DNA of 64,000 nucleotides from Minisyncoccota bacterium (lineage in GTDB: Bacteria > Patescibacteriota > Minisyncoccia > Phycocordibacterales > UBA9973), in contig JARLIG010000009.1 in NCBI GenBank assembly GCA_031291825.1, positions 136,058-200,057 on the forward strand. Reading direction: 5' to 3'. Below, in pieces: positions 15,758 through 61,500 of this stretch (its first letter is position 1; each line of letters starts with the position of its first letter). The notes beneath the pieces are model-generated. The model saw only the letters and a list, made by a program, of their open reading frames with translations, searched no databases and was not told the DNA's origin. Made by a program: the position numbers and the translations under genes.

Positions 15758-15788
15758 AAGCCCCCACTCGGGGGCTTTTTGTATTTTT
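15758..15788 (+). terminator. rho-independent terminator
   Basis: aaagcccccactcgggggctttttgtattttt. Confidence 0.8.
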
Positions 15789-15900
15789 AGTAGTTCAGAA
15801 AATATATTTTATAAAGCAATCTATCTCCGCAAGCTTGCGGAGCGAACTGCTCGGCGCGCCCGCCTGCGCAAGGCTTTCTAAAACATATTTTCTGAACTCC
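15786..15900. repeat. GC-rich palindromic intergenic element, copy 1 (core gccttgcgcagg..gcgcgccgagcag on the minus strand)
   Basis: Inverted flanks agttcagaaaatat / atattttctgaact enclose the palindromes ctccgcaagcttgcggag and ctcggcgcgcccgcctgcgcaaggc. The core recurs at 21556 and 61448 and inside pcrA. Confidence 0.65.
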
Positions 15901-17687
15901 TAACTTTGCCTTTTACCATGTAAAAGCATATCAACGGCGTGTTGCATGTCTCCAGCTAGCGTTACCTCTCCCCCGTTTACAAAGAATATTTCATCTGCGT
16001 TTTCAATCGTATTTAGGCGGTGCGCGATAATCACGCGAGTTGTATTTACCGGTAATTTTCTTAAAATTTCTTCTAGTAATTGCTCTGTCACGGTATCGAT
16101 GTTTGCTGTCGCCTCGTCTAAAATCAAAATATCAGGATTACGAAGCACTGCGCGTATGAAAGCAATGAGTTGCTTCTGTCCGAGACTGATAGCGTCACCA
16201 CCTGGATGAATTCTGGTGTCTAACCCTTCCGAAAACCTATCTAGTAATTTTGTGAGGTTAGCCTTTTCTAAAACTTCGGTTAGTTCTTCGTGGGAAAATC
16301 CCGCATGTTCCTTGTTCCCATAGATAATATTTTCGTAAACCGTTCCAGTAAACAAGAATGGTTCTTGTAAAATAAATCCGATTTTTTTTGCCCGTTCTTC
16401 TCCGCTGTATAGTCTGATATCTTTGCTTTCCAAATATATTTCACCCTGTGCTGGATCGTACAACCGCGCCATGAGTGAAGCTGTAGTGGTTTTACCACCG
16501 CCCGTCGGACCAACAAAAGCATAAGTTTTTCCTTTTTCTAATTTGAAATTTATATTTTTTAAAATTTCTTTACCCTCTCCATATCTAAAATAGACATTTT
16601 TAAATTCCAAAATTGTTGAGGTAGAAGAAGAAATTATTGGTACATTTACTTCTTCAGGTGATAATATTTTTATATTTGATTCCAAGGTCAAAATTTCAGA
16701 AATACGGTCGAGGCCAGCAAGCGCAAGCTGTAGTGATGGCCAAACTGAAGCCAGCTGTCGAAGTGGATTGTAAAAATTGTTCACATAAAGGAGAAAACTG
16801 ATTAATAAACCAACCGTAAAATGTCCGACAGAAATTAAATAAATACCATAAGCTAAAACACCTATCTGCCCCAATATCCCCGCCAAGGTGTAAAGTGGAG
16901 TGAAAACGTTGCTGGCGATACCAGCTGAAATAGATGCTTTATAATTTACTTCATTACTTTCTCTAAATTTATCACGGAAATAATCTAATCGATTAAATGC
17001 CACAATCACTTTGAAGTTATTGATACTTTCAGAAATTTCACCACTCATACTGCCTAAGGTTCGCAAGCTCTTAAGACTAGTGCGTTTAACCCAAGGTGTA
17101 AGGAACTGTGTCACAACGAGAACGATAACTGCGGGAATTAAGGCCACACCACCCAAATGTATATTAATAGCTAAAAGAAATATTCCCGTGCCAACAATTA
17201 AAACTATATTACTAATAAACTGCATGAAGGCTTGCGAAAAAAATTGATTGAGTTTGTCTGTATCATTATTTATACGCGAGATAATATCACCTTCTTTGTT
17301 TTGATTAAAAAACGCAACAGGTAGAGCTTGTAGTTTTTCAAAAATTTTATTACGTAAATTGAAAAGCAGTCTTCTGCCAACCCCACCCATGACTTTTACT
17401 TGTATATAACTGGAGATAAGTCCGACAATGTAAACAGCGGTAAGTAAGATAGAAAACATTAAAACCCCGTGAAAATTTTTACCCTGAAGATAAACATCCA
17501 CGATATGTCCAATAATAATCGGCACGACAAGAGTTGCCGCCGAAGAAACAAAAATTGCAGCTAAGGCAAAGATAACCGAATTCCCTTCTTCTTTCATTAA
17601 GGGAATGAGTCTCTTAAAAGCGGTGACTAATACACCCTTTTCTTTTTCCTTTGCTATATCAGTTTTGTTTAAAGAATAATCACTCAT
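15900..17687 (-). CDS. ABC exporter, fused permease-ATPase (type I exporter, MsbA-like) subunit B
   Basis: 6-TM domain followed by a nucleotide-binding domain with GPTGGGKTT, LSLGQKQLIAFIRAVL, ILILDEATANID. Confidence 0.9.
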   Translation of the reverse strand: MSDYSLNKTDIAKEKEKGVLVTAFKRLIPLMKEEGNSVIFALAAIFVSSAATLVVPIIIGHIVDVYLQGKNFHGVLMFSILLTAVYIVGLISSYIQVKVMGGVGRRLLFNLRNKIFEKLQALPVAFFNQNKEGDIISRINNDTDKLNQFFSQAFMQFISNIVLIVGTGIFLLAINIHLGGVALIPAVIVLVVTQFLTPWVKRTSLKSLRTLGSMSGEISESINNFKVIVAFNRLDYFRDKFRESNEVNYKASISAGIASNVFTPLYTLAGILGQIGVLAYGIYLISVGHFTVGLLISFLLYVNNFYNPLRQLASVWPSLQLALAGLDRISEILTLESNIKILSPEEVNVPIISSSTSTILEFKNVYFRYGEGKEILKNINFKLEKGKTYAFVGPTGGGKTTTASLMARLYDPAQGEIYLESKDIRLYSGEERAKKIGFILQEPFLFTGTVYENIIYGNKEHAGFSHEELTEVLEKANLTKLLDRFSEGLDTRIHPGGDAISLGQKQLIAFIRAVLRNPDILILDEATANIDTVTEQLLEEILRKLPVNTTRVIIAHRLNTIENADEIFFVNGGEVTLAGDMQHAVDMLLHGKRQS

Positions 17688-19419
17688 ATTGGTTCATACT
17701 TTTTTGTGAATCATAAATTTGCACATATTCCGGAGAAGATTTTAATAGTTCTTCGTGTGTCCCTTTAGCCAAAACTTCCCCTTCCATCAGTAAAACAATT
17801 TGGTTGTAGTGTTCAATTGATTGAATTTTTTGTGTGACCGAGATTAGTGTTAGGTCCGGATAATTTTTAGTAATATTGTCCAGAATCTTTGCTTCAGTCT
17901 GATTATCAACTCTTGATGTAAAATCATCTAGTAAAAGTATTTTTGGATTAAGCGCGAGCGCGCGAGCCAGCATAATGCGTTGCTTTTGACCACCAGAAAG
18001 ACTCGTCCCTCGCTCAGAAACAACTGTGTCTAGTTTCTCCGGAAGAGTATCAATAAAATCTTGTAATTCAGCTGTACTAATTGCCTTTTCTAGGTAAGCA
18101 TCTTTAGCCAAGTTACTGAAGGCGATATTCTCACGCAAACTTAAGTTGAACAAAATACTATCTTGAAAAACAAAACCGATTTGGCTGTGTAAACTTTCTT
18201 TGTCGTATTCATTTATATTTTTACCATCGATGATAATCTCTCCTTTAGTTGGATAAAGAAGTCCTGTTAATAAATAAAGCATTTGGGTTTTTCCAGCAGC
18301 CGTCGGACCAATAATGGCAGTTTTACTGCCAGCCAAGACTCTAAAAGAAACGTCTCGCAAAGCAGCTTTTTCTCCAAAAAGCACAGTTACGTCTTTGACT
18401 TCAATATCGCCTCTAAGCGTTGATGCTAATGTTCCATTTTTCTTTTCTTTGGATACATAGAGCACTTCCCCGATACGTCCATAAGAAGCACGCGCCGAAG
18501 CAATAACGTTGGTCATAAAACCAATTATCAAAATAGGAAAAATAAGAATTGCCAGATAGCTGTTAAAGGCAGTAAAGTTTCCGAGAGTCATAGTACCTTG
18601 GATGACAAAGTGTCCGCCCAAAACAACAATTACCAACGTCGCTAGGTTGGTAAAAAAAGTAATAACTGGAATAAGGCTGGCAAATAAAGCTAGAATATTT
18701 AAACTGATTCTTTTCGCTTCAGTACTAGCAACTAAAAATTTATTATATTCAATATCTTTTGAGTTGAGTAATCGAATAATTCCAGAACCCAAGATACTTT
18801 CACTAATGACTTTGTTTAACCAATCAATTGCTTTCTGTGATTCCAAAAAAAGTTTCCTGACTTTAGATAAAACATAAAAAAATGTTACTGCAATGATTGG
18901 TACAATAGCTAGCACGCATAGTGCCAACCTAAAATTAATTAAAAGCAACAGCACGGCTGCGCCGATAATTAAGAAAACGGAAGAAATAATAGAAGCGATA
19001 GCGGTAGACACAAAAGTCTTTATCGCATCAACATCGGAAGTCAGATTGGTTAAAAGTTTAGCAGGAGTGATTCTTTCAATGTAGGAATATTCTTGAATTG
19101 AAATCTTAGCGGTTAATTCGTTACGTAAATCTCTCGCAACTTTTTCAGAAACATAAACCTGAACAATGTTTTGTAAGTAAGTAAAAATAAAAACCAGAAC
19201 TGCAACAATAGAAAATTCTATAATTAAACGACTGACAACAAAACTACCTTTCATATAGGTATCAATAGCATTTGCGATAATTTTCGGCACAATCAAATTA
19301 AAACCATTGCCAACGATAGTAACAGCTATAAGGATAAAAAGAAGAAGTTTATATGGTTTTAGCAATCCAAAAAGACCAGGTTGATTTTGTTTTTCTTTTT
19401 TAGTATCCAAAATTTTCAA
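17680..19419 (-). CDS. ABC exporter, fused permease-ATPase subunit A (heterodimer partner)
   Basis: 6-TM domain plus nucleotide-binding domain [36 protein letters not shown]. Overlaps the downstream paralog by 8 bp. Confidence 0.9.
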   Translation of the reverse strand: MKILDTKKEKQNQPGLFGLLKPYKLLLFILIAVTIVGNGFNLIVPKIIANAIDTYMKGSFVVSRLIIEFSIVAVLVFIFTYLQNIVQVYVSEKVARDLRNELTAKISIQEYSYIERITPAKLLTNLTSDVDAIKTFVSTAIASIISSVFLIIGAAVLLLLINFRLALCVLAIVPIIAVTFFYVLSKVRKLFLESQKAIDWLNKVISESILGSGIIRLLNSKDIEYNKFLVASTEAKRISLNILALFASLIPVITFFTNLATLVIVVLGGHFVIQGTMTLGNFTAFNSYLAILIFPILIIGFMTNVIASARASYGRIGEVLYVSKEKKNGTLASTLRGDIEVKDVTVLFGEKAALRDVSFRVLAGSKTAIIGPTAAGKTQMLYLLTGLLYPTKGEIIIDGKNINEYDKESLHSQIGFVFQDSILFNLSLRENIAFSNLAKDAYLEKAISTAELQDFIDTLPEKLDTVVSERGTSLSGGQKQRIMLARALALNPKILLLDDFTSRVDNQTEAKILDNITKNYPDLTLISVTQKIQSIEHYNQIVLLMEGEVLAKGTHEELLKSSPEYVQIYDSQKSMNQYE

Positions 19420-19421
19420 AT

Positions 19422-19703
19422 TTATTCGCCTTGGCTAAACTCTTCCCCTTTAGCCCATTTTTTTAAATTATTATAGTCAGTCTCTCCACAAATCCATTTA
19501 TTAGTTTTAGTATTATAGAAAAATGGTACTCCACCACAAAATTCTTTATCGAGCTCAAGCAAACGAGCTTCATTTTCTTTGTTGTGCCAAACTTCTAAAC
19601 TTTCAATCTTTATTCCTTCCTCTTTTTCTAATTTTTCCACAAGTTCATGCATCCGCACACAGTGTGGGCATTCAGTTCCATAAAACTCTAAAAGATGGTT
19701 CAT
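19422..19703 (-). CDS. glutaredoxin/thioredoxin-fold protein (CPHC active site)
   Basis: 93 aa. EFYGTECPHCVRM near the N-terminus, and a later CGGVP motif typical of the glutaredoxin-like fold. Confidence 0.6.
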   Translation of the reverse strand: MNHLLEFYGTECPHCVRMHELVEKLEKEEGIKIESLEVWHNKENEARLLELDKEFCGGVPFFYNTKTNKWICGETDYNNLKKWAKGEEFSQGE

Positions 19704-19706
19704 TTT

Positions 19707-19958
19707 TTATTTAACTAGTTTTGATAAACGAGACTTTTTGCGGGCAGCGTTGTTTTTCTTAATAACGCCTTTTTGTGCAGATTTATCAATAGCCTGAAAA
19801 GCAGCAGAGAGCATTTTTTCGGCTCCAGCTTTATCTGTTTTTACAGTTTTCTCAATTTTTTTGATGATTTCCTTCATGACTTTCTTTCTCTGGTCATTGA
19901 AGGCCTTTTTGCGGAGTGAACCGCGAATTGCTTTTTTAGCTGATTGTGTTATTGGCAT
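19707..19958 (-). CDS. rpsT: 30S ribosomal protein S20
   Basis: Basic alpha-helical protein matching the S20 pattern SAKKAIR..RK..N...K..MKT.IKK...A. Confidence 0.8.
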   Translation of the reverse strand: MPITQSAKKAIRGSLRKKAFNDQRKKVMKEIIKKIEKTVKTDKAGAEKMLSAAFQAIDKSAQKGVIKKNNAARKKSRLSKLVK

Positions 19959-20031
19959 ACAGATAATATAGCTTAAAATAACGATAAATGCAATCCCCGC
20001 CACGGCGGGGTAAATATGCTATGATAAATAT

Positions 20032-20598
20032 ATGATTGGTAGCATTAGGGGGAAAATAATATTCAAAACGGAGAAATTTTTAACTGTGGAAACAGGCGGG
20101 GTCGGCTATAAAGTAAGTGTCTCTCCCGATACATTGTCTAAAACAAAAAAGTTAGATAGTGAGATTTTTCTTTGGATTCACACTCATGTTCGCGAAGATG
20201 CCCTGGATTTATACGGATTTTTAAGCCAAGAGGAGTTGGAATTTTTTGAAATGCTCATAAATGTCTCCGGTATTGGACCAAAGGGGGCACTCTCCATTCT
20301 AGGAATTACATCTATCGAAACACTAAGAAAAGCTATTGGTATCGGCGATACAAGTTATCTCACAAAAATTTCTGGTATTGGGCGAAAAACTGCAGAAAAA
20401 ATTGTTATTGAGTTGAGAGATAAAGTTGGTAGAGAATTAGAAGGCAGTTCTCTGCAAGTAGAGTTAGATGCACTGGAAGCATTAAAATCACTCGGCTATT
20501 CTGCCATTGAAGCTCGCGATGCACTTAAAAAAGTTTCCGTAGATGCTAATACCAACACCAAAATCCGCGAAGCCTTGAAAATTTTAGGCGGAAAATAA
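20032..20598 (+). CDS. ruvA: Holliday junction branch migration protein RuvA
   Basis: MIGSIRGKI..GVGYKV.VS...L, HhH motifs LINVSGIGPKGALSIL, C-terminal domain III. Confidence 0.9.
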   Translation: MIGSIRGKIIFKTEKFLTVETGGVGYKVSVSPDTLSKTKKLDSEIFLWIHTHVREDALDLYGFLSQEELEFFEMLINVSGIGPKGALSILGITSIETLRKAIGIGDTSYLTKISGIGRKTAEKIVIELRDKVGRELEGSSLQVELDALEALKSLGYSAIEARDALKKVSVDANTNTKIREALKILGGK

Positions 20599-20604
20599 AA
20601 ACCC

Positions 20605-21504
20605 ATGCCGGAATTACCAGAAGTTGAAAATCTTAGAATGGGTTTAGCGAAAAATATCCTAAACCAAAAAATTCTTAGCGTGGAAATAAGAAAACCAAAA
20701 CTTGTTTCTGGTAAGGGAACCTTGCGAAAAATTTCCCAAAAAAAGAAAGCCCAATTTATAAATGGTGTTGTGGGTGAAAAATTTATCGCCGTAGAAAGAA
20801 GAGCCAAGAATCTCATTTTCAAATTAACTCACGAAAAAATTATCATTGCTCATTTAAAAATGTCTGGGCAGTTTGTATATCAGAAAAAAAGTGGGCAGAA
20901 AGCTGTTATGGGCGGTCACTCCATAGAACTCTCAGAAACCAGACTGCCAAATAAACATTCACATATCATATTTAAATTAAGTAACGGGGTTTTGTACTAC
21001 AACGATACAAGAATGTTTGGGTATGTTCTCTACTACCAGAGCGCAAAAACATTTGAAGCAGAGAATCATTTTGTTATGTATGGGCTAGAACCATTGTCTC
21101 CAAAATTTACCGCTAAATATTTTTTTGAATCCCTGAAAAACAAAAAAGGAAAGATTAAAGCCGTGCTGATGGATCAGAAAATTGTCACTGGTCTCGGAAA
21201 TATCTATGCAGACGAGAGTTTGTTTGAGGCAAAAATACGTCCAGACAGACAAGCTTTCAGCATCTCAAAAAAGGAAGCCGAGGAACTACACAAAGCAATA
21301 ATTCGTATTATAAAGCGAGCTATCAAAGTTGGAGGTTCATCTGTGGCTACTTATCGTCTTTTAGATAATACTCGAGGTAATTACGCCAGAGAACACAAAG
21401 TATATGGAAAAAATGGAGAAATGTGTCCAAATTGCAAAAAACCGCTCACAAAAATAATAGTTGCCGGAAGAACAACGATTTTCTGCAAAACTTGTCAGAA
21501 GTAA
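20605..21504 (+). CDS. mutM: formamidopyrimidine-DNA glycosylase (Fpg/MutM)
   Basis: N-terminal MPELPEV catalytic motif, H2TH domain, C-terminal zinc finger CPNC..C..C. Confidence 0.9.
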   Translation: MPELPEVENLRMGLAKNILNQKILSVEIRKPKLVSGKGTLRKISQKKKAQFINGVVGEKFIAVERRAKNLIFKLTHEKIIIAHLKMSGQFVYQKKSGQKAVMGGHSIELSETRLPNKHSHIIFKLSNGVLYYNDTRMFGYVLYYQSAKTFEAENHFVMYGLEPLSPKFTAKYFFESLKNKKGKIKAVLMDQKIVTGLGNIYADESLFEAKIRPDRQAFSISKKEAEELHKAIIRIIKRAIKVGGSSVATYRLLDNTRGNYAREHKVYGKNGEMCPNCKKPLTKIIVAGRTTIFCKTCQK

Positions 21505-21540
21505 AAAAACAAAATAAAATTTTTCTGAAAGTGTGTAGAA

Positions 21541-21615
21541 TTCTTGGTTTTTAAGGGCTTGCGCAGGCTGACGAGCCGAGCAGGAATAAAAATTCAGTAG
21601 AATTTTATATGTACC
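21541..21615. repeat. GC-rich intergenic element, copy 2 (ggcttgcgcaggctgacgagccgagcag)
   Basis: A 28-nt GC-rich core shared with 15849-15876 (reverse complement) and 61448-61475, followed by an AT-rich tail with cag.a.aatat-like motif. Confidence 0.6.
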
Positions 21616-22095
21616 TTAAAAATTAAGAATTCGGAACAAAGCAATTCCAGTTGCCACAGAAACATTCAACGATTCTTTTTTGCCTCGCATTGGAATTTCA
21701 GCAACAATATCGCATTTTTCCAAAACGTTTTTAGGTATACCCGTCACTTCTGTGCCAACAATGAAAACATTTTTGTTTTGCAATTTAATTTTTTTGTAAT
21801 CAATGGATTTTTCATCTTGCTCAATAGCAATAATCTGAAAATTGTCCTTCTTTAGTTTTGCAAGTAATGGTAAAACACTTTTTTTCTGTTCCCAAGCAAC
21901 AAACTCTTCTGCCCCCAGCGCAGACTTTGCTAAATCTCTCCTCTTTCGCCCAAATCTATCTAAGGGTGTCGGCGTATAGCCCGTCAAATAAATTTTATTG
22001 ATTCCTGCAGCATCTGCCGTACGAAACATCGCCCCAACGTTTTCCACACTTCGGATATTATGCAAAATTAAAATGTTTTCCTGTTGTTTTTTCAT
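21616..22095 (-). CDS. SpoU/TrmH-family RNA 2'-O-methyltransferase (TrmL-like size)
   Basis: 159 aa SPOUT fold: ILILHNIRSVENVGAMFRTADAAG and C-terminal SLNVSVATGIALF. Confidence 0.8.
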   Translation of the reverse strand: MKKQQENILILHNIRSVENVGAMFRTADAAGINKIYLTGYTPTPLDRFGRKRRDLAKSALGAEEFVAWEQKKSVLPLLAKLKKDNFQIIAIEQDEKSIDYKKIKLQNKNVFIVGTEVTGIPKNVLEKCDIVAEIPMRGKKESLNVSVATGIALFRILNF

Positions 22096-22098
22096 ACT

Positions 22099-23319: not shown

Positions 23320-23320
23320 C

Positions 23321-29741: not shown

Positions 29742-32243
29742 CTATTTAACTTCACCAAAATTATCACCAAAACCAGAGTGAACTAAGAGTGGAATTTCTG
29801 TTTTATACTGTAAATATGACCTTTCTAGCACATGCTCCATAGCATTTTTTATAACCGCATCGGCTTGATCTAAAACTTTTTCATCTATTTCATAGACCAG
29901 TTCGTCGTGTATCTGAAGCACTAAGTGGGCTCTGTCTATCAACCCAGCTAAGGTCAAATCCTCTTCTGCATATCTAATTGCCAACTTTATAATATCTGCC
30001 GTGGCTGTGCCTTGAATTGGCGCATTGGTGGCAGTTCGTTCAGCCATATTTTTTAAAAAAGGAATTCTCGAATTTATATTTGGAAAATAACGTCTACGAC
30101 CAAACAATGTTTCAGTATAGGAATGTTTCATTGTAAATTCTTTTACGCTTTCCAAATAATCTCGCACACCAGAAAATTGATTAAAATAATCATCGTAAAA
30201 TTTTTGAGCTTCCGGACGCGTTCCCCCAAGATTTTTACGCAGAGCAGAAACCCCCATACCATAAATAATTCCGAAGTTTATAACTTTCGCCTTGCGACGC
30301 ATTTCAGCATCAACCTTATCTATCGGAACACCGAAAACAAATGAGGCGACTCCGGCATGAATATCTTTTCTCGCGCGGAATATCTGAGTCATGTTTTTAT
30401 CACCAGAAAGTATTGCGGCGACGCGTAATTCAATTTGACTGTAATCAAAAGCACAAAGCTTAAATCCACTGGGAGCAATAAATCCAGTGCGGATTCTCCT
30501 ACCAAGCTCTGTCTTAATCGGCAGATTTTGCAAATTTGGATCCTGTGAAGAAAACCTGCCAGTCGTCGTGCTGTTTTGTAAAAATTTTGCATGCAATCGT
30601 CCATCAACGCTAACCATTTGAGGAATTACATCGATATAAGTTGAGAGTAGTTTTTGTAATTCCCGATAAGCTAAAATTTCTTTAACGATTGGGTTGTCTT
30701 CCTCTAGTTCTTCTAAGACTGAAACTTTTGTAGAAAAAGAACCACTAGAATTTTTTTTCTTTGTTGTTTTAATACCCATCTTAACAAAAAGCACTTCGGC
30801 TAATTGCTTCGGTGAATTAATATTAAATTCCATTCCAGCTATGGAATAAATTTTTTTAGTAAGTGAATTTAGTTTTGTGTGATACTCTGTAGATAATTTT
30901 TCAAAATATTTTTTATCTATTAATATTCCATAATCTTCCATCTTTTTTACAATACTAATAATCGGTTTTTCTATTTCTTCGTAAATTTTTTCTAAGCTTG
31001 CCCCGCCTTGGCGTGGGGTTTTTTCTTTCAGTTGTTGAAAAATATATTCATAAGCTTTATCAAAAGAATCCGTTTTTGCGAAAAAAAGTATGTCTTCCAA
31101 GCTCGGAGTGGAAATATCTGAATTAATTAGCCAAAGAGCTATGCTGGCTTCTTGGAATTTTTTTGGGTCCACCAGAAGAGAGTGTTGCTCAGAGGAGTCT
31201 TCGCCCTCAGAAGACGAACCTAGAGAATTTTTGAGTGGTCTGGCCAGGGTTTGGGGCCCCGGAGAACCGAGGACCCGAGAAAATTCTACTGGGTTCGTCT
31301 TCTGGTCTTGGTTTCCAAAAAAACTTTTTAAACGTCCCAGCAAGCTCCTAAATTCAAAATCAGCAAAAACTTGTTCTATTTTTTTAGAATCAGCGTTTTC
31401 CCAAAAAGTTTTTTCGGGTAACACAAAATTTATCGGTGCATCTGTTCTAATCGTGGCTAATGTTTTAGAAAATAACGCTTCTTCTTCGTTATTTTTAAGC
31501 AAATCAATCATTCTGTCTGACACGCCCGCTTTTTTAAAACGTAATTCGTAATCTGTCATTCGCAATTGCTTATATATTTCTTCAATCGTGCCAAAATTTA
31601 TAATCAAGTTTTCAGCAGTTTTTTCACCGACACCTTTTATACCAATAATGTTGTCCGACGGGTCTCCACGCAGACCTTTGTAGTCTGGTAAAAGTTTTGG
31701 CTTAAAATTAAATCTTGCAACAACGGCCCCCTCATCATATAAAATGGTTTCATTTATGCCTTTTTTTAAGGTATAAACCTGCACTTTTTTACCATCCACT
31801 AGTTGCATGGTATCCATATCACCAGAAGCAATAATAATATTTATTTTTTTATCTTTTTTATATTTTTCAACAATTGTTCCCAAAATATCATCCGCCTCAA
31901 AACCTGACGCATCATAAATTGGTATATTAAAAGCTTCAAAAATTTGACGAGATTTTTTTAATTGTACAATGAGAGCTTCGTCTGTCTTTGCTCGTCCTGC
32001 TTTATATGCATCATAAGCTTCGTGCCTGAAAGTTTTTTGCGGTAAATCATAACAGGCAACAATATAATCTGGCTTTAACTCAGTAATAATTTTCATCAAC
32101 ATACTAGAGAGTCCATAAAGCGCACCTGTTGGTTCGCCCTTTATAGACAAAAACTCCGGCAGTGCATGATAGGCGCGATGTATTATTGCGTGAGCATCCA
32201 AGAGAACTAGTGTTCTACTGTTTTGTTCTTTTACTTTGGACAT
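29742..32243 (-). CDS. polA: DNA polymerase I (5'-3' exonuclease plus polymerase domains)
   Basis: N-terminal 5' nuclease (LLDAHAIIHRAYHAL, GIKGVGEKTA). C-terminal pol A motifs (DYSQIELR, RRKAKVINFGIIYG, HDELVYE). Confidence 0.9.
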   Translation of the reverse strand: MSKVKEQNSRTLVLLDAHAIIHRAYHALPEFLSIKGEPTGALYGLSSMLMKIITELKPDYIVACYDLPQKTFRHEAYDAYKAGRAKTDEALIVQLKKSRQIFEAFNIPIYDASGFEADDILGTIVEKYKKDKKINIIIASGDMDTMQLVDGKKVQVYTLKKGINETILYDEGAVVARFNFKPKLLPDYKGLRGDPSDNIIGIKGVGEKTAENLIINFGTIEEIYKQLRMTDYELRFKKAGVSDRMIDLLKNNEEEALFSKTLATIRTDAPINFVLPEKTFWENADSKKIEQVFADFEFRSLLGRLKSFFGNQDQKTNPVEFSRVLGSPGPQTLARPLKNSLGSSSEGEDSSEQHSLLVDPKKFQEASIALWLINSDISTPSLEDILFFAKTDSFDKAYEYIFQQLKEKTPRQGGASLEKIYEEIEKPIISIVKKMEDYGILIDKKYFEKLSTEYHTKLNSLTKKIYSIAGMEFNINSPKQLAEVLFVKMGIKTTKKKNSSGSFSTKVSVLEELEEDNPIVKEILAYRELQKLLSTYIDVIPQMVSVDGRLHAKFLQNSTTTGRFSSQDPNLQNLPIKTELGRRIRTGFIAPSGFKLCAFDYSQIELRVAAILSGDKNMTQIFRARKDIHAGVASFVFGVPIDKVDAEMRRKAKVINFGIIYGMGVSALRKNLGGTRPEAQKFYDDYFNQFSGVRDYLESVKEFTMKHSYTETLFGRRRYFPNINSRIPFLKNMAERTATNAPIQGTATADIIKLAIRYAEEDLTLAGLIDRAHLVLQIHDELVYEIDEKVLDQADAVIKNAMEHVLERSYLQYKTEIPLLVHSGFGDNFGEVK
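31208..31304. repeat. GC-rich palindromic element inserted in-frame in the polA interdomain linker
   Basis: Inverted arms cagaagacgaacctagagaatttt / aaaattctactgggttcgtcttctg. The core tggtctggccagggtttggggccccggagaaccgaggacc is about 80 percent identical at DNA level to the ksgA element but read partly in a different frame. Confidence 0.75.
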
Positions 32244-32814: not shown

Positions 32815-34512
32815 ATGGCTTTATTTGACGAAGAAAAACAAAACAAGCAACTAGACGAATTACACAAACAAGAAGAGGAAGAACTGGTTGCAACTTTGGC
32901 CGAATCAAAGTATGGTCTTCCTTATATTGATTTATATCGTTTAGGTATAGACAACGAAGCGCTTCGCGTAATTTCGGAAAAAGATTCTAGAGAAATGAAC
33001 GTAGCGCCATTTAAACTTTTTGGGAAAAATATTTTTATTGCCTTGCGTGTACCCAGTGAAGACCTTATAAAAAGACTCAAGGATGACATGGAACGAAAAA
33101 GTTTAGTTCCAACTTTTTATATGGCTTCCGCGGCCAGCATCAGTAAAGTCTGGGACAGATACAAAGAACTTTCGATGGCAGAAAGTTCCCAGGTTGGAGG
33201 AATAGATATTTCTGGAGACGTCTTAAGAGAAACAGTAAAAAAGATAGAAAAAATACAAGATATACAAAAAATGGTGACAGAGGCATTGGAAGGAAATAAA
33301 ATTCACAAAATTTCCCGCTTACTAGAAATTATTTTAGCTGGTGCAATTGCAATCAAAGCTTCAGATATTCACATTGAACCAGAAAAAGAAAAAGGTAGAT
33401 TGCGTTTACGTCTAGATGGTGTCTTACAAATAACTAATTATTTTGGCTTAGATGTTTACCGCCTACTTAACTCGCGAATCAAACTTCTCTCAGGCATGAA
33501 GCTAACTTCAAAAATAGCTCAAGATGGACGTTTTAATATCGAAGAAGGGGTGGAAGAAATAAGTATCCGTACTTCTTTAATTCCTGGAGCCTATGGTGAA
33601 TCAATCGTTATGCGTATTTTGGATCCGAAATCTATTCAGGTTAATCTAGAAGAGATAGGAATAGAACCACACCTTTTTTCTGTGATTCAAGAAGAAATTA
33701 CCAAACCAAACGGTTTAATTTTAGTCACTGGTCCAACCGGTTCCGGAAAAACAACCACTCTTTACGCATTCCTAAGAAAAATCTATTCGCCAGAAATAAA
33801 AATAATCACCATTGAAGACCCAATCGAATACCATTTACCTGGAATAACTCAAACTCAAACCAATGAAGAAAAAGGTTACACTTTTGCGGAGGGTTTACGC
33901 TCAGCTCTTCGCCAAGACCCCGACGTAGTGATGGTTGGAGAAATCCGCGACAACGAAACAGCCGAGACAGCTGTACAATCAGCCCTGACTGGTCATATTG
34001 TTTTCTCAACTCTACACACCAACAATGCTGCTGGTGTTATTCCTCGTCTAATTGACCTTGGAGTAAATCCGAAAATTTTAGTTTCTGCATTAACACTTTC
34101 AATCGCTCAAAGATTGGTGCGTAAACTATGCCAGTTTTGTAAAAAAGAAAAAGAAACTACGGGAGAAGAAATAAAAACATTAAAATCAATTATTGAAGGA
34201 ATGACAGCAGAAGGTAAAAAAATATCAGATTATGGCATAAATGCCGAAGCACCAATTAAACTTTTTGCTGCTGTCGGTTGTGATAAGTGCAATATGACTG
34301 GTTATAAGGGACGAATCGGAATCTTCGAAGCGATTCAAACAACTGAAGCAATCGAAAAAATAATGCCAGAAAATCCAAGCGAGCGCGAAATTAAAAAAGT
34401 CGCCAGCACGCAAGGCATACTTTCAATGCGTCAAGACGGACTAGTAAAAATGTTGAGTGGAATCACTTCGATAGAAGAAGTGCAAAGCGTGGTGGACTTA
34501 AATGAAGCTTAG
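32815..34512 (+). CDS. pilB: type II secretion/type IV pilus assembly ATPase (GspE/PilB family)
   Basis: N1/N2 domains, Walker A GPTGSGKTT, Asp box, His box, tetracysteine CQFC..CDKC motif. Confidence 0.85.
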   Translation: MALFDEEKQNKQLDELHKQEEEELVATLAESKYGLPYIDLYRLGIDNEALRVISEKDSREMNVAPFKLFGKNIFIALRVPSEDLIKRLKDDMERKSLVPTFYMASAASISKVWDRYKELSMAESSQVGGIDISGDVLRETVKKIEKIQDIQKMVTEALEGNKIHKISRLLEIILAGAIAIKASDIHIEPEKEKGRLRLRLDGVLQITNYFGLDVYRLLNSRIKLLSGMKLTSKIAQDGRFNIEEGVEEISIRTSLIPGAYGESIVMRILDPKSIQVNLEEIGIEPHLFSVIQEEITKPNGLILVTGPTGSGKTTTLYAFLRKIYSPEIKIITIEDPIEYHLPGITQTQTNEEKGYTFAEGLRSALRQDPDVVMVGEIRDNETAETAVQSALTGHIVFSTLHTNNAAGVIPRLIDLGVNPKILVSALTLSIAQRLVRKLCQFCKKEKETTGEEIKTLKSIIEGMTAEGKKISDYGINAEAPIKLFAAVGCDKCNMTGYKGRIGIFEAIQTTEAIEKIMPENPSEREIKKVASTQGILSMRQDGLVKMLSGITSIEEVQSVVDLNEA

Positions 34513-34809
34513 AAAATAAAAAAAGCATTAATCTCCAAACAATCCTTTTAAGGCTGGGCCTCAAAAGTAACAAAGAATTATAGGATAGTTCCAGTGAACT
34601 AATAAAAGTACCAAAACGTCCTATGCAAATTCGTATAACCGGTGGCTGATTGCTTAGAGATTAATGCCTTCTTGGCAAAACTCTCCCAAAACTATTTAAT
34701 TGGCTACAAAAAGATTATACTATATGCTATCTAAAGCAAATGATATAATGTTGATAGGGCTGTTAATACCCTGTTGATAAACATACTAACATCACCAATA
34801 TAGCATACT

Positions 34810-48918: not shown

Positions 48919-48922
48919 TTGT

Positions 48923-49909: not shown

Positions 49910-49961
49910 ACTCTAATTATATCATTTGCTAATGCCCAATGCCTAGAGCCCAAGGCCTGTA

Positions 49962-52494: not shown

Positions 52495-52500
52495 AGTGCT

Positions 52501-53076: not shown

Positions 53077-53126
53077 TTTAATTATAACCTTAAAGCTTTA
53101 TTTTTCATAACCGCCAAGCACCTTTT

Positions 53127-53867: not shown

Positions 53868-53881
53868 ACTTTTATTAAAGA

Positions 53882-54361
53882 TTACTTCTTAAAATTTTCT
53901 TCTTTCAGAGAAAAGACCGGGACCACTGGTTCTTCCTCTTCAACTGTTTCTTCTCTTGGTTCCAGAAAAGCGGAATAATCTCCGCCGGAGAGAACAAAAT
54001 TAATATTTTCCTCGGGTTTTGAATTTTTTATCTTGTCGCTTTGTTTAACTTTGTCTATCAGCAGGTCATTTATTGGTATAAATATTTTTTGAGTAATTTC
54101 TCCAGAGATTTTTTCCGCTTCATTCTTACTGGTGCCAACTTCAGACTCAATGTTGTCTATATATGAATCAATGTCTTCAATACCAGTTAAAATCAGAAGT
54201 GTTTCTACTTGAAGATTATTTATGTCATCTTTAGATAGTAAATATTTTTTACCGATTTCTTCCGTAAGTTTTACCCAGTCAAAAGAAGTCAAAACATCTT
54301 GTGTTTCCTTTGGTAGTTTTTCAATCTCTTTTTTAATTGTTGTTTTTAATTCATCTGTCAT
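53882..54361 (-). CDS. hypothetical protein, paralog B
   Basis: N-terminal domain similar to paralog A (FDWVKLTEEIGKK..LQVETLLILTGIEDID). Confidence 0.4.
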   Translation of the reverse strand: MTDELKTTIKKEIEKLPKETQDVLTSFDWVKLTEEIGKKYLLSKDDINNLQVETLLILTGIEDIDSYIDNIESEVGTSKNEAEKISGEITQKIFIPINDLLIDKVKQSDKIKNSKPEENINFVLSGGDYSAFLEPREETVEEEEPVVPVFSLKEENFKK

Positions 54362-54366
54362 AAATT

Positions 54367-56778: not shown

Positions 56779-56810
56779 TATTTTTCTTTCGCGAAAACCT
56801 TACTGTATTT

Positions 56811-59552
56811 TTAATTTGCCGTCCAGATCGTGCCAGTTCCTTCACAAGAAGATTGTGGTACATTGTCTCTAACAACAACGCAGGCTCCATTTGTCCAATT
56901 TCCATTAATAGTAGAACAAGCACTTTCTGGCACTCCGTTTATGGTCATCGAACAGGTTCCTAGCTGGCTAGAGGTTGAAGATACGGTAATAGTTGATGTG
57001 ACAGTTTGATGAACCGGTGTCGATGAATCCTGAACTGTAAAAGGAGTAGAACCTTGTGAGTTTCCAGTGATTGTAATATTCGAGCCAGAAAGCGCGACAC
57101 TTGCGACTGTTCCATTTGGCCATGTGGATATGCTATATGGCACTGTGCCACCAGTGATGGTTATTGTCTGGGAATTATTAATTGACTCAGAAATATTTTG
57201 GGGAATAGTTAGAGAATTTGATGTCGGATTACTGGGAGTAGTGCCATTTCCTGTCACAGTTATGTTGAGTGAGTCAGTATCGTTAGATTGATCTTGCACT
57301 ATCATTGATGTGGTTCCCGATGCCACTCCTGTGAGAGAAAGAGTATTTCCGTAAATTTGAGCAATCGCGACCGCAGAACTCGGTTCTGTTTTTATACTAT
57401 ATAGTGCCGCTGAACTTGTGTTGCTTGTATTTACTTTTCCATTAACAAGGGTCAGGTTGGTTGTTCCGCTTGCAGTTAAAGACACATTCTGGGTTTGTGG
57501 GTTGCTGAAATCAATTATTGAAGACTTGGTCGCACCGACTGTGATTGGAACATTAATAGTTTGCTCCGGAGAGAATGAATCCTGAATAGTCACTGATGTT
57601 GTTCCAGCTGTGGATCCGATAACAGTAAGAGTGTTGCCAGAAACCAACGCTGATGCTATGGATGAATTTGATGGTGTTATTATGGCGAAAGGAGGTGTGC
57701 CACCAGAAATAGTTACATTTGTTGTACTTCCTATATTCGCAGAAACAGCTGGAACAGAAAGTGAAGACTCACTACCAATTACAATTTGCAAAGTAATAGT
57801 ATTAGCTGGAGTTGAAGAATCTTGAAGAATAATTGAAGTATTTCCAGGCGCGACACCGATAATTGTAAGAACATTATCGGAAATAAGTCCCAACGCAATA
57901 GTTGAATCTGGTTCGGATTGTATACTATAAGGAGCCGTACCATTTGATATAGTTATGTTTGTTGAGCTTCCGACGCCGGCAGAAATTTTTTGTAAGGCGG
58001 TTGGGTTATTGAAATCAACAATTAAACTGGTTGTCACTTGCACCGTAGCTGTTTGGGCTGGAGTTCCGGAATCTGTAACTACGAATGATGTTTGACCTCC
58101 GGCAACACCCGTGACAGATAGATTGGTTCCAGAAATATTAGCTGTTGCTACGGATGAACCAGGTGGTGTTTGTATTGTATAAGGTGCTGTGCCCCCAGAA
58201 ATGATTGTTGAAGTTGTGTTGCCAGGTTTGACTAGGACACTTGTCGGGACGACTAATGGATTTGTTGTACCACCACCACCTGCGCCGTTTAAAGTTTGTC
58301 CTGCATAACTCCAACTATCTGGTGAAGGGATAGACTGGACTGTTTGTGAAAGTGCGCTTAAACCTTGTTGCAAGAAATGATTTATGAAAGCATTTAAAAT
58401 AGCAGAAATACTGTTTCCAAGGGCTGCATCTAGTTGGGCTGAGCCAGTTTTTAAATTTAGAGCACTCGTTATTTGATTTGCCACAACTGCGCCCGGAGTG
58501 GTTGTAACTAAACCACTTGTGCCGTTAGGTTTTATACATTGATTTGTTTCAGCCCATGTGTCTTGGGCTTCACTATACAAAATGTCATAATCTTTTTGTG
58601 TTTGTGCTTCACAGGTTGCGTTAATGCCGGTAGGGCAATCTGCTGCTTCGGTTTGGTTCCAGATGCTACCGTCAGTATCAAAAGTAAAAGTTGGTTTATG
58701 CCACTCGTCGGCACTATTGTTGTAGCTTGGGTTTACGCTTGCGGGGCAAACTTGTGGAGACAAAAATCCCATTCCTTGCTGAAGCGTCGAAGTCACTTTT
58801 TGTGCATCATTCTGCGTGGTTCCTGCAAGTTGTGAAGCCAAGTTTTGACTTGCAAGCATGCTGTATCCTGGATAATTATTTTGTGGATACTGAGTATTTA
58901 AAAAGAAAGCATTCCATCCGCCAGCGTTAAAATTATTTTGATAACTTTGCACTAAAGCTGGGTCATTAGTTATCTGACTGTAACTGGATTGCATGTCAGC
59001 ATTGCCTGCTTGTTTATACATATTTATTACCTGCAAATCCCAAGCCTTACCGAAAGGAAACTGAACCGAATTATATCCAGTCTGATTTATTATATTTTTT
59101 ATTTCAAATTGACCGATGTCTCCAAAGAATTGGCTTGGATTTTGTACGAAAAGTGGAGAGCCAGAAAAACCAGAATTAATCCAATTGACTGTACTTTGGG
59201 TTATAGAATCTAGCAATTTATGCTCAATAACAATAATAGCTTGTCTTAAAACCTCTTTAGCTGCAGCCTCTATTTTCATTGCAAGACTTATGTGTGTGTC
59301 TACTGCTGTAGACGCGGTTGCGGGTGCTACAACACCTGCAGTTGTCCCCGATGTGACAGTATTTTCGCCAAGATCTGCTGAGTTTTCGCCAAGATCTGCA
59401 TAATTAAATCCTTCATCTAAAAATTCAGGAAAGTCGCCATTGTAGTCATTAGCCTTTGCTTTTTTAGGGACAGAAAGTAAAACAACTGGCGTTATTATTA
59501 GAATAATAACAATAGAAGAAATTAATTTTACTATATATTTTTTTCCTATCAT
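56811..59552 (-). CDS. large secreted surface protein with about six tandem Ig-like (Big-type) repeats and a Cys-rich C-terminus
   Basis: Signal peptide, about 430 aa N-terminal domain, then repeats of about 85 aa (GGTAPY.IQT.P.SS.A.A.ISGN.L.V.G...G.TS..VQDS..P....T). The C-terminus contains 6 Cys. Confidence 0.6.
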   Translation of the reverse strand: MIGKKYIVKLISSIVIILIITPVVLLSVPKKAKANDYNGDFPEFLDEGFNYADLGENSADLGENTVTSGTTAGVVAPATASTAVDTHISLAMKIEAAAKEVLRQAIIVIEHKLLDSITQSTVNWINSGFSGSPLFVQNPSQFFGDIGQFEIKNIINQTGYNSVQFPFGKAWDLQVINMYKQAGNADMQSSYSQITNDPALVQSYQNNFNAGGWNAFFLNTQYPQNNYPGYSMLASQNLASQLAGTTQNDAQKVTSTLQQGMGFLSPQVCPASVNPSYNNSADEWHKPTFTFDTDGSIWNQTEAADCPTGINATCEAQTQKDYDILYSEAQDTWAETNQCIKPNGTSGLVTTTPGAVVANQITSALNLKTGSAQLDAALGNSISAILNAFINHFLQQGLSALSQTVQSIPSPDSWSYAGQTLNGAGGGGTTNPLVVPTSVLVKPGNTTSTIISGGTAPYTIQTPPGSSVATANISGTNLSVTGVAGGQTSFVVTDSGTPAQTATVQVTTSLIVDFNNPTALQKISAGVGSSTNITISNGTAPYSIQSEPDSTIALGLISDNVLTIIGVAPGNTSIILQDSSTPANTITLQIVIGSESSLSVPAVSANIGSTTNVTISGGTPPFAIITPSNSSIASALVSGNTLTVIGSTAGTTSVTIQDSFSPEQTINVPITVGATKSSIIDFSNPQTQNVSLTASGTTNLTLVNGKVNTSNTSSAALYSIKTEPSSAVAIAQIYGNTLSLTGVASGTTSMIVQDQSNDTDSLNITVTGNGTTPSNPTSNSLTIPQNISESINNSQTITITGGTVPYSISTWPNGTVASVALSGSNITITGNSQGSTPFTVQDSSTPVHQTVTSTITVSSTSSQLGTCSMTINGVPESACSTINGNWTNGACVVVRDNVPQSSCEGTGTIWTAN
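57000..58300 (-). repeat. tandem DNA repeats of about 250 bp encoding the Ig-like repeats
   Basis: Recurrent units visible at DNA level (for example ggtgtgccaccagaaat / ggtgctgtgcccccagaaat and ccatttgatatagttatgtttgttgagcttcc-like segments). Confidence 0.5.
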
Positions 59553-59589
59553 TTTAATATTTTTACTTGCTTATTATACGATTTTATAC

Positions 59590-60516
59590 TTAATCTTTCA
59601 ATCCCACGTCTATTGCATTTGCTAACGTATTAATAGAAGTTCCCAGAACTACGGTGTTTGTTTCATACTTACTTATCCCGCTGAACGAAACCAGTGGGTC
59701 ATTGTTGTATTGTTGTATGTCGTTTAGATTTTCAATCACCTCTTCTAGTGAGTTTATAACACTCAAATGGGCAACTGCTAAAGATTGTGGAACTTCTGTT
59801 TTTAGCATTCCGTTCAGCATAGTACTTAATACTTTGATAGTTGGGCTAAGTTCTGGTAATACAGTTGGGTCTACGTTGTTCCCTGTGTCGTCTGGGGCAA
59901 ATTGTTGCAATACGTCCATTACGGAAGGTTTTACATATGTTTTTGGAAAAAAGACATCTAACGCATCACTATATTTTTTTATTGATTTTGTACCATTGTC
60001 ATTGCTAATTTTTAAGTCGGACAACGAATATATTTTTTTTTGTGGAGAATTCTGTACATTATTTTCCAATGTGTTGGTTATTTGATCTGCTGTAGCTTGG
60101 TCCATATTACCATTAGCATCTATCGCGCCAGTTTGTGTTAGTGTTGTAAGTGTCGCAAGAAACTCTCTGGAAAATTGGTCAGTTTGTGTCAAACTAGAAC
60201 TGGAGCCTTCGACGTTTGCCTGACCGCCTGCCTCTTGTTCTTGCTCTTGTTCCAACTTTGCGATTGTCACACTGTCTGGAACTCCAGGAACATTTTCTGT
60301 CTTTGTGGGGTCGAGTCCAAATAGAATCTTTTTCCAATCAGGTATACCATCTCCTGTGGTGCTTTTGTTGACCAAGTCCGCCACCGTTTCGTTGCCGTAG
60401 GTTAATCCAGATTGTTGATTTCCACTAATGTAACTGATTGTATTTTTGAATAGATTTTTATTTTTTACACAAAAAATTACAACGACAAAAAGAATTGCAG
60501 AAGCAACCCAAATCAC
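59590..60516 (-). CDS. bitopic membrane protein (N-terminal TM, extracytoplasmic domain), first gene of the T4SS-like operon
   Basis: N-terminal hydrophobic anchor followed by a Q/E-rich linker (EQEQEQE) and an alpha/beta domain. VirB8-like topology only. Confidence 0.35.
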   Translation of the reverse strand: MIWVASAILFVVVIFCVKNKNLFKNTISYISGNQQSGLTYGNETVADLVNKSTTGDGIPDWKKILFGLDPTKTENVPGVPDSVTIAKLEQEQEQEAGGQANVEGSSSSLTQTDQFSREFLATLTTLTQTGAIDANGNMDQATADQITNTLENNVQNSPQKKIYSLSDLKISNDNGTKSIKKYSDALDVFFPKTYVKPSVMDVLQQFAPDDTGNNVDPTVLPELSPTIKVLSTMLNGMLKTEVPQSLAVAHLSVINSLEEVIENLNDIQQYNNDPLVSFSGISKYETNTVVLGTSINTLANAIDVGLKD

Positions 60517-60569
60517 TCTTTTTTGTTTTGACCAATTTAATTTAGTTATGCAGTGATTATATCATTTTC

Positions 60570-61406
60570 CTATTGTTTGGCTAGTGAAATCCAGTCTTCT
60601 AATGCTAAGTCTTCCGCTCTTTTATTGCCCAAACTTTCTATTAAAATGCTATTTTTATAATTTTTAAGAGATTTTAGATTACTGGAGAGTTTTTTTCTCT
60701 TATGTGCGAAACCAGCCTTCACTGTTTCCCAAAATTTTTCTTCGTTTACTTCATTTTTTTCAAAAACTTGTCGAGAAATATTTTTTATGACAATAATTGC
60801 CGAGTCAACCTTCGGAGCGGGTGAAAAATATCGTGCTCCAACCTTCATTACCATTTTCGGTTCCCCGTAAGCCTTCACTGAAACCGAAAGGATGCTTTCT
60901 TTCTTATCCGAAGCTACAATTCTTTTAGCAACTTCGTGCTGTACCATCAAAACCATTCGTTCTGGCTGATTTTTTTCTGTTAAAAATTTTTTCAAAATGG
61001 CACCAGTAATGTTGTAGGGAATATTGGCGATAATCTTGTAAGAAAACAGTTTTGAGTTTTTTAAATGGTCTGGCTGGGATAGGGACCCAGAGGACCGAGG
61101 ACCTTTAAAAAATTCCAAAACTGTTTTCTTAGGATCAAATTCTAAAATGTCATCATTTATTAAAATTAATTTTTTTTCTGTAATTTCTTTTACAAATTTT
61201 TCTTTCAAAAATTCAAAAAGCTCACGGTCTTTTTCTACCGCAACCACAACTCCAGCTTTCTCCAAAAGTTTTTCGGTCAACGCGCCCTTGCCTGGACCAA
61301 TCTCTAGGATTATGTCGTCGGTTTTTATTTCTCCAGCTTCAATAATTTTATTTAGAGCTAATTCTGACTTTAAAAAATTTTGCCCTAATGATTTTTTTGC
61401 TTTCAT
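60570..61406 (-). CDS. rsmA: 16S rRNA (adenine1518/1519-N6)-dimethyltransferase RsmA/KsgA
   Basis: LGQNFL, EIGPGKGALT SAM-binding motifs, ANIPYNIT motif. Confidence 0.9.
   Translation of the reverse strand: MKAKKSLGQNFLKSELALNKIIEAGEIKTDDIILEIGPGKGALTEKLLEKAGVVVAVEKDRELFEFLKEKFVKEITEKKLILINDDILEFDPKKTVLEFFKGPRSSGSLSQPDHLKNSKLFSYKIIANIPYNITGAILKKFLTEKNQPERMVLMVQHEVAKRIVASDKKESILSVSVKAYGEPKMVMKVGARYFSPAPKVDSAIIVIKNISRQVFEKNEVNEEKFWETVKAGFAHKRKKLSSNLKSLKNYKNSILIESLGNKRAEDLALEDWISLAKQ
61043..61129. repeat. GC-rich palindromic element inserted in-frame in ksgA
   Basis: Arms gaaaacagttttgagttttttaaa / tttaaaaaattccaaaactgttttc around the core tggtctggctgggatagggacccagaggaccgaggacc. Homologous to the polA element. 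Confidence 0.75.
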
Positions 61407-61440
61407 ATTTTTTAAATAAAATTCGTTGCAGGTATACTTT

Positions 61441-61500
61441 TTGTAGAGCCTTGCGCAGGGCGACGGCCCGAGCAGAGCAATTTTTCATCAGAAAAATATG
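61441..61500. repeat. GC-rich intergenic element, copy 3 (gccttgcgcagggcgacggcccgagcag)
   Basis: The same 28-nt core as copies 1 and 2, followed by cagaaaaatat. Confidence 0.6.

Follow-up and report, generated by a model that had tools for sequence, protein, structure and literature searches.

Introduction

Rickettsia palindromic elements (RPE) are reportedly dispersed palindromic repeats of ~100-150 bp in a small, AT-rich, reduced genome, and in work by Ogata et al. from 2000 they are said to lie both between genes and in frame in housekeeping genes, where they add a peptide segment to the protein. We know of no enzyme that mobilises RPE. REPs are extragenic by definition and species-specific, and MITEs, the miniature inverted-repeat transposable elements, have conserved terminal inverted repeats and target-site duplications, some of them inserting in genes or affecting the mRNA when they are co-transcribed. 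The genomes of the candidate phyla radiation (CPR; Patescibacteria) are among the smallest and most streamlined, and are thought to be poor in repetitive and mobile DNA. Here we describe a family of palindromic hairpin elements with a conserved GC-rich core, of which four copies are present in a 64-kb stretch (~37% G+C) of contig JARLIG010000009.1 from a Minisyncoccota bacterium. We refer to this whole stretch as the window.

The overall finding is a repeat family in CPR genomes with a specific, covarying junction fold, an estimated several dozen copies per ~1-Mb genome, and in-frame insertions in essential enzymes. A full-text search of the published literature found no description of this family. 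We give about an even chance to the explanation that the element is a non-autonomous mobile (selfish) palindromic repeat like RPE and REP/REPIN, with the junction as its recognition module. The family offers one explanation for some of the lineage-specific insertions in CPR proteins, and its copies serve as landmarks for rearrangements and indels. It also points to a putative factor, an enzyme or an RNA-binding one, by which the junction is recognised. The covariance model described below can serve as it stands for annotation of the family and in the search for a co-occurring gene.

The element shares the descriptive features of RPE. It is palindromic, in the range of ~100-150 bp, is dispersed in small, reduced, AT-rich genomes, and is found between genes and in frame in protein-coding genes. 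The hosts are not those of RPE (Alphaproteobacteria for RPE, CPR here), and an RPE family is delimited by the overall similarity of its sequences inside a single genus, whereas here an invariant core is shared across many genera and the stems are variable but paired. Because the two were compared by description and the hosts are CPR, we treat the likeness to RPE as an analogy and not as membership.

Like REP, REPIN and BIME repeats, the elements are structured intergenic palindromes with a high copy number and adjacent inverted doublets, and they resemble those repeats in long persistence, in concerted evolution, in a hairpin that is likely recognised as a single strand, and in possible side effects at mRNA ends. 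However, REPs are simple 20-40-nt hairpins with a GTAG or CGTC head (PMC3733652), whereas the elements described here are ~95-126 nt long, contain a three-way junction, have no GTAG head and no conserved head in the boundary profile, and share one core across many genera. They are also not strictly extragenic, with in-frame copies in eight host genes. Like the bacterial MITEs (Correia/NEMIS, ERIC, RUP and BOX), they are small non-coding fold-back repeats, but their outer arms vary from copy to copy, the centre is the conserved part, and target-site duplications are absent. Like the element, the RNA motifs and ribozymes in Rfam 15 combine covarying stems with loops and junctions that are invariant, but no such family reached its gathering score in the window, where the only matches at that score were two tRNAs. 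The element lacks the features that define REP, MITEs, intrinsic terminators and each of the Rfam families tested.

The core is part of a covarying three-way junction

A first-pass annotation of the window had reported a shared GC-rich core in three intergenic regions. A pattern search of the window for CTTGCGCAGG-N8-CCGAGCAG gave exact matches at these three places (Table 1), with all 18 specified bases identical and zero mismatches. The chance level was a mean of 0.01 matches at up to three mismatches, and none of 100 dinucleotide-preserving shuffles reached three. The core (26-28 nt) is P2, the most conserved hairpin, located at the tip of a hairpin element of ~100-125 bases. The larger symmetric structure noted around copy 1 is also there, as two 31-nt arms (15787-15817 and 15873-15903) that are 90% complementary and form stem P1 of the element, and the perfect palindrome in that copy, ctccgcaagcttgcggag, is hairpin P3. 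The shared tail 'cag(a/t)a(a)aatat', in contrast, did not turn out to be a single homologous motif: its letters are, in copies 2 and 3, the loop and 3' strand of P3 plus the next junction strand, whereas in copy 1 they belong to the outer stem P1, and P3 there is the GC-rich palindrome. A fourth copy, which the annotation had not listed, lies inside pcrA.

Each copy, when folded alone, gave the same three-way junction on the motif strand (z = -5 to -7), and ~100 non-redundant copies from related loci share this fold. The plan of the element is a long stem, P1, with a three-way junction at its tip that bears P2 and P3. The sequence of P1 differs in each copy, with an A-rich 5' arm and a U/T-rich 3' arm; the stem has a median of 31 aligned pairs (maximum 44), and the median length of the element is 116 nt. 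P2 has the consensus C-UUGC-GCA-GG-NN-[GNCG]-N'N'-CC-GA-GCAG, with a 3x2 internal loop in which GCA faces GA. P3 consists of 7 bp of free sequence and a tetraloop of the form A-N-C/U-A/U, and a strand of 6-7 nt returns from P3 to P1. The junction strands are conserved and define two types of apex, type A (J23 UUCG, J31 AUAGAUU) and type B (AGCA and AUGUGU). There are also subfamilies of P1: class X, to which window copy 3 belongs, with a conserved internal loop GUUGCA/CAAGAAA; class Y, which carries AAAUAGUUCUUGAGAAAAGC; and a third, CCAGGAAGC/GCUGACGGG, that was seen in genes.

Some copies have ~40 nt or more of extra sequence at the tip of P2 (L025 7196-7335, L082 275-414 and L047 47-202, where L and a number is the label of a locus). 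In these members a much longer hairpin replaces the tip, whereas the internal loop and the helix at the base are retained. P2 has an invariant U at its base (U24), which is present as a G-wobble or a bulge and is conserved even where the sequence of the helix has changed; two variants with A...U for C...G favour a bulged U.

Covariation across copies, a check that the first-pass annotation had proposed, was strong. In an alignment (A1) of 102 sequences, RNAalifold predicted 20 pairs, of which 14 showed compensatory changes. We also tested our own 35-pair structure against shuffles. In this structure 86.1% of cells were paired, compared with 62.5% in shuffles, and the covariation score was 0.598, compared with 0.173. 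This score was reached in none of 500 shuffles, and slid registers all scored far lower. Pairing in P3 was 98.9% and all seven of its pairs covary. Both inner pairs of P2 covary as well, with the combinations CU/AG, CC/GG, GC/GC, CG/CG and AC/GU.

The conservation pattern, with invariant loops and junction and covarying stems, looks like that of a functional RNA. The main alternative to a mobile repeat is a structured RNA module that is useful to the host and kept by host-level selection. Its junction would dock a conserved RNA-binding protein or RNase, and the module would serve as a tag at the ends of transcripts or the borders of operons, for their processing, their stabilisation or factor-dependent termination. 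The very strong covariation, the invariant loop and junction nucleotides, the asymmetric non-Watson-Crick U24, and the tolerance of P2-tip extensions of variable length, as in RNA families, all speak for such a module. So does the inner part of P1, in which there were 85 G.U and 29 A.C combinations, both counts being inflated by shared ancestry and subfamily sequences. In contrast, P3 is nearly devoid of G.U pairs (2 in ~714 cells), and the outer part of P1 has no strand asymmetry, its mismatches being symmetric (G.T 27, A.C 24). In-gene copies that are antisense to the gene keep complementary arms (L023 compared with L101) and fold equally well. Because of the symmetry of outer P1, the rarity of G.U in P3, the folding of antisense copies, and an orientation that is unrelated to transcription (see below), we conclude that upkeep of the fold is independent of the mRNA strand. 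This fits recognition, during copying, of folded single-stranded DNA, or of either RNA strand. Taken with the genomic context presented in the next section, we view the RNA module as possible but somewhat doubtful.

Distribution and genomic context

The core recurs widely outside the window, in at least 100 copies, almost all of them in Parcubacteria-type CPR genomes. An exact-core scan of one genome per species gave at least 118 loci. Of these, about a dozen belong to other phyla and are chance matches in GC-rich sequence, and another is in an archaeon (Nitrososphaera). The remaining loci are from Patescibacteria metagenome-assembled genomes labelled Nomurabacteria, Zambryskibacteria, Taylorbacteria, Giovannonibacteria, Paceibacterota or Parcubacteria, and the core is common to many genera. 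There were 0 matches of the exact core to viral contigs. The label 'uncultured Candidatus Saccharibacteria' (within loci L007-L111) comes from third-party (TPA) assemblies. At least one locus with this label, L021, shares synteny with the window (71-87% nucleotide identity), and the same is true of loci labelled Nomurabacteria or Paceibacterota. We therefore regard the Saccharibacteria label as unreliable and make no claim about true Saccharimonadia. Synteny places the window itself in a Nomurabacteria-like organism.

We ran a covariance model of the family (R1) on the window and the loci. R1 detected 114 copies in 740 kb of loci, ~26 of them beyond the seed matches. The density was ~1 per 25 kb for the extra copies (in ~650 kb of CPR loci) and 1 per 16 kb in the window (4 in 64 kb), from which we estimate that a genome of ~1 Mb has several dozen copies. 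In seven cases two neighbouring elements formed an inverted pair, 17-80 nt apart (L017, L022, L056, L060, L065, L114 and L118).

Elements occupy the entire intergenic gap and often overlap stop codons. Relative to the flanking open reading frames (ORFs), 38 copies are opposite to both, 21 have the same direction as both, 20 are between convergent ORFs and 18 between divergent ORFs. The antisense excess among co-directional genes (38 compared with 21) is modest at most (p of ~0.04 by our own binomial estimate), and the orientation is near random and, if anything, antisense, contrary to what a module acting on the host transcript would lead one to expect. The same is true of the copies between divergent genes, and of the ~10% of copies that lie, in either orientation, inside essential coding sequences. 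The neighbouring genes share no function. In the window they are ordinary housekeeping genes, encoding ABC transporters, S20, Fpg, SpoU, KsgA and PcrA, and for the ORFs next to the copies in L056, inspection of the translations by eye suggested FtsK, RecA, EF-P, L11 and NusG.

An orientation independent of genes, together with regular spacing (~1 per 16-25 kb) and conservation across many genera, could also reflect a host site that acts at the level of DNA, as a cruciform or folded single strand bound by a protein of chromosome organisation, topology, replication or recombination. Binding of gyrase and IHF has been proposed for BIME/REP repeats. The almost purely Watson-Crick covariation of P3 and the symmetric mismatches of outer P1 fit such a site, but there is no tie to the origin, the terminus or a strand, the four window copies being split 2:2 in a region of uniform GC skew. 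In addition, the in-frame copies in genes and the filled and empty sites described below point to opportunistic insertion and not to placement, and a binding site in double-stranded DNA needs no covarying stems. We consider a DNA-level host site decidedly unlikely.

Fourteen copies are in long open frames. Ten further copies were examined with a Pfam scan, which confirmed the host gene for nine of them; one host ORF had no Pfam match. The confirmed hosts are Aminotran_5 (IscS-like), TsaD, TruB, PGM/PMM, KsgA, ArgRS and MnmA, which with PcrA makes eight host genes. Within genes the copies keep the host frame open, lie in either orientation and are read in more than one frame. The suggestion that the core belongs to a palindromic family with in-gene members is thus borne out by the pcrA copy in the window and by at least seven more housekeeping genes in related genomes. 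It does not extend to the polA and ksgA hairpins of the window, which are likely the in-gene inserts that the annotation meant: these have another apex and score only ~13 bits with R1.

A search of a 5.8-billion-protein collection with a single insert peptide, or with a profile of 21 insert peptides, recovered no host proteins, the word index being unsuited to this query. The profile did match six ORFs of 43-71 amino acids (P0001-P0006). These have no Pfam domains and are translations of element copies, one of them named 'hypothetical protein' by its source. The tiny ORFs are likely annotation artefacts, and the family thus flags a source of mis-annotated small ORFs, in which predicted proteins of 43-71 amino acids overlie element copies.

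Turnover between related genomes

Copies of the element are in places more similar between genomes than the genes around them. Copies were 88-98% identical across genomes whose genes were 68-80% identical. Window copy 1 was 93% identical to the copy in L015 over 102 nt, with different flanks, and 96-99% identical to copies in L029, L093 and L118 over 77-85 nt. The subfamily CCAGGAAGC/GCUGACGGG was present in three unrelated genes (TsaD, TruB and PGM/PMM).

Syntenic sites were variously filled, empty, or occupied by another variant. The gap between the homologues of window positions 19703 and 19707 contains an element in L021, L029 and L060, and only a few bases in the window and L087. In the stretch of L118 that is syntenic with pcrA there are two head-to-head elements (5900-6000 on the minus strand and 6018-6120 on the plus strand), whereas the window has one, a presence/absence difference located inside a gene. 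The L118 copy at 6018-6120 has paired changes in P2 and P3, as judged by eye, relative to copy 4 of the window. Other sites are shared: the site of copy 2 is also occupied in the syntenic loci L021, L033, L058, L060 and L087, and L118 has a class X element at the place of copy 3, in the same orientation.

We compared different occupants of the same site by counting double and single changes. There were, for example, 12 double and 0 single changes between L021 and L029, 8 and 2 between L061 and L063, and 13 and 3 between copy 2 and L033. Some of the differences at shared sites are exchanges of entire P3 stems. The many double and few single changes indicate replacement or gene conversion as much as stepwise compensation.

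Elements may also mark rearrangement or indel junctions. Copy 1 lies exactly at the edge of a lineage-specific 3.5-kb segment of the window (15900-19419) that contains two tandem ABC-transporter genes and is missing from the syntenic loci L021, L029 and L033. At the neighbouring S20 site (the homologue of 19703|19707), the element is oppositely oriented in the relatives.

Proposed mobility and recognition of the element

If the element is a mobile palindromic repeat, the entire hairpin would be the selfish unit that is copied to new sites, and copies would survive where they are harmless, between genes in gaps of small size or, within proteins, as in-frame additions to surface loops. A putative trans-acting enzyme that moves or copies the element would recognise it by a module made up of the invariant, asymmetric junction and the internal loop of P2. 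This enzyme would most likely act on a folded single strand, of DNA or possibly of RNA. The near-perfect complementarity of the stems would be upheld by selection on the fold, by templated correction from arm to arm, and by gene conversion among copies. Effects on transcripts, such as those of a stable hairpin at an mRNA end, would be secondary.

Several observations weigh against a mobile repeat. Neither a mobilising enzyme nor a RAYT, the Y1 HUH transposase that goes with REP/REPIN repeats, was found by tblastn in ~1 Mb of sequence with an IS200 TnpA query (nothing below E = 0.4), a weak test that covered ~8 kb per genome. No target-site duplication was detected, as the longest direct repeat shared by the two flanks had a mean of 4.20 nt, compared with 4.12 nt in flank-swapped controls. 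The boundary profile of the copies contained no boundary motif and no conserved terminal inverted repeat. A search for the 5' half-motif without its partner, which could have revealed an autonomous parent, gave only variants with a 5-nt loop. The invariant-loop junction and the variable extensions of the P2 tip look more like a functional RNA than like the simple hairpins to which known single-strand DNA transposases respond, and the G.U excess in inner P1 mildly favours RNA of the motif strand. Finally, the site of copy 2, and pcrA with the site downstream of it, are still occupied in genomes that are ~70% identical, with the structure intact. Such intact, long-term persistence is unlike that of a purely selfish, decaying repeat and suggests host-level selection, as in the case of an RNA module, or constant gene conversion.

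A related explanation, which we put forward tentatively and think rather unlikely, is a new structured replicator or ribonucleoprotein site that is specific to CPR and present in ~40-60 copies per genome, with the junction bound or used catalytically by a putative conserved enzyme. This role could be filled by a new transposase or recombinase for single strands, by a copier of the reverse-transcriptase type, or by an activity in RNA processing or akin to splicing, one that deals with the copies in essential genes as well. The copies would then act as punctuation of the streamlined chromosome or transcriptome.

Copies in the window

The four window copies and the other features discussed below are listed in Table 1. 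The first-pass annotation had placed each core at the 3' end of a gene, which is only loosely the case. Copy 1 follows an ABC-transporter gene, in sense in its 3' untranslated region, with the stop codon (15900-15902) inside the outer P1 arm, and is itself followed on the same strand by a canonical terminator; this sense position upstream of a terminator is a further point in favour of a host RNA module. Copy 2 is between the convergent genes fpg (20605-21504, plus strand) and a spoU-type methylase gene (21616-22095, minus strand), and its 3' P1 arm overlaps the spoU stop codon. Copy 3 lies between pcrA and ksgA and is antisense to both. The internal loop in its P1 is GUUGCA/CAAAAAA.

Copy 4 is in sense and in frame in pcrA and encodes ~34-41 extra residues (KNFSSRGLSQADAPRGSAVRARTDSDPEKERFSG). 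An alignment of the window PcrA with structure 1pjr breaks at query residues 345/383 and PcrA residues 346/353, a gap that corresponds to an insertion of ~31 residues at the position of copy 4. An exact look-up of the window PcrA sequence returned no record. In this copy the basal P2 helix is changed from UUGC/GCAG to CUCUC/GAGGG, and the GCA/GA internal loop and a GACG tetraloop are unchanged.

Table 1. Positions of the element copies and of other features in the window.
Feature	Position	Strand	Description
Copy 1, whole element	15787-15903	-	117 nt, type A; 31-bp P1, then P2 and P3; R1 94.4 bits, E = 8e-22; folding energy of the stretch tested -71 kcal/mol, z = -6.8
Copy 1, P2 core	15847-15872	-	C-UUGC-GCA-GG CG [GGCG] CG CC-GA-GCAG; exact match and fold
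Copy 1, P3	15825-15842	-	7-bp stem and tetraloop, CUCCGCA-AGCU-UGCGGAG
Canonical terminator	15751-15784	-	Separate hairpin, after copy 1
Promoter-like site	21492-21520	+	TTGTCA-17-TAAAAT, 10/12 matches; ends ~18 nt before copy 2
Copy 2	21538-21632	+	95 nt, type B'; P2 core 21558-21583; R1 85.9 bits
Copy 3	61415-61540	+	126 nt, type B apex, extended class X P1; P2 core 61450-61475; R1 85.7 bits
Copy 4	62488-62610	-	GC-rich variant in pcrA/uvrD (61543-63636, -); P2 core 62552-62577; R1 match 62498-62599 (-), 69 bits, E = 3e-15
Second-family hairpin	31208-31304		In polA (29742-32243, -)
Second-family hairpin	61039-61131		In ksgA (60570-61406, -)
Short GC-rich inverted repeat	61856-61907		In pcrA; 20-nt arms, 85% complementary
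Sub-threshold RF03531 (n00280) match	61664-61761	-	In pcrA; 44.7 bits, gathering score 65.2
Hairpin followed by UUUU	3630-3674		Perfect 19-bp stem, 7-nt loop; between ORF 3138-3632 and tRNA-Arg (3719-3793)
Inverted repeat of 155 nt	34519-34673		In the gap after ORF 32815-34512; 26-nt arms, 85% complementary

The annotation had raised the possibility of a terminator module. With a GC-rich apex set between A-rich and U-rich arms, the element could in principle make a bidirectional intrinsic terminator or insulator: whichever direction is read, A predominates in the 5' arm and T in the 3' arm, many copies come directly after stop codons, and copy 2 is conserved between convergent genes. However, the U-rich arm is base-paired and lies apart from the GC-rich hairpins, and there is no U-tract signal. 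The consensus scan called no terminator at the three intergenic copies, its sole call being the separate canonical hairpin that follows copy 1. Copies between divergent genes and within essential genes are not where terminators would be expected, and intrinsic termination needs no invariant junction sequence. We find this explanation very improbable.

We hold equally little belief in a small RNA gene that is transcribed independently, or in a new self-cleaving ribozyme borne by the repeat, the other roles that might be suggested by the many copies in each genome and by a compact, conserved three-way junction whose own nucleotides are invariant. There is a promoter-like site upstream of copy 2, but the number of such matches in the region is within the range of shuffled sequence and their positions are not conserved. 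At the three intergenic copies, signals in the promoter and terminator scans did not exceed those of shuffled sequence, and because the elements fill the intergenic gap and overlap stop codons, there is no room for transcription signals of their own. A search of all four copies against Rfam 15 at E ≤ 1-10 gave no ribozyme or small RNA match, including hammerhead, twister, twister-sister, pistol, hatchet, SRP, Y RNA, HEARO and IS605-orfB, and returned only unrelated terminator, microRNA-like hairpin and coding-sequence matches. Efficient self-cleavage would also destroy the mRNAs of TsaD, PcrA, ArgRS and other hosts.

Some known RNA structures were considered by inspection and rejected. The hammerhead sequence CUGANGA occurs in the P2 loop of some copies only. 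The register of a kink-turn conflicts with the covarying pairs 33:40 and 34:39. The SRP helix 8/Alu domain, Y RNA, and retron, bridge and omega RNAs are single-copy and located beside a gene.

A second hairpin family and other structures in the window

The hairpins in polA and ksgA belong to a second family, which was also seen at L053 (~4094), L087 (~5089), L101 (~185) and L110 (~3982). Its members have a long copy-specific stem and a GC-rich apex, U-GGUCUGG-[hairpin]-AGRA-CCGAGGACC, and both window copies are in frame. The apex has the 'GG...CC-GA' signature of the P2 core. It probably represents a sister family built on the same plan, with one factor, or two related ones, recognising both families.

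Two other features are within pcrA. The short GC-rich inverted repeat coincides with ~11 residues (…NSENPVRGREGSQRLSASNG…) that are extra in comparison with 1pjr, and it may be the remnant of another insertion. The sub-threshold match is to a family described in Rfam as 'C. difficile sRNA included into helicase gene', and most likely reflects conserved helicase coding sequence and not an RNA.

The perfect hairpin upstream of the tRNA-Arg gene looks like a strong terminator, and R1 gave it a stem-only match of 21 bits. The 155-nt inverted repeat folds on the minus strand at -62 kcal/mol, with a branched apex that is unrelated to either hairpin family.

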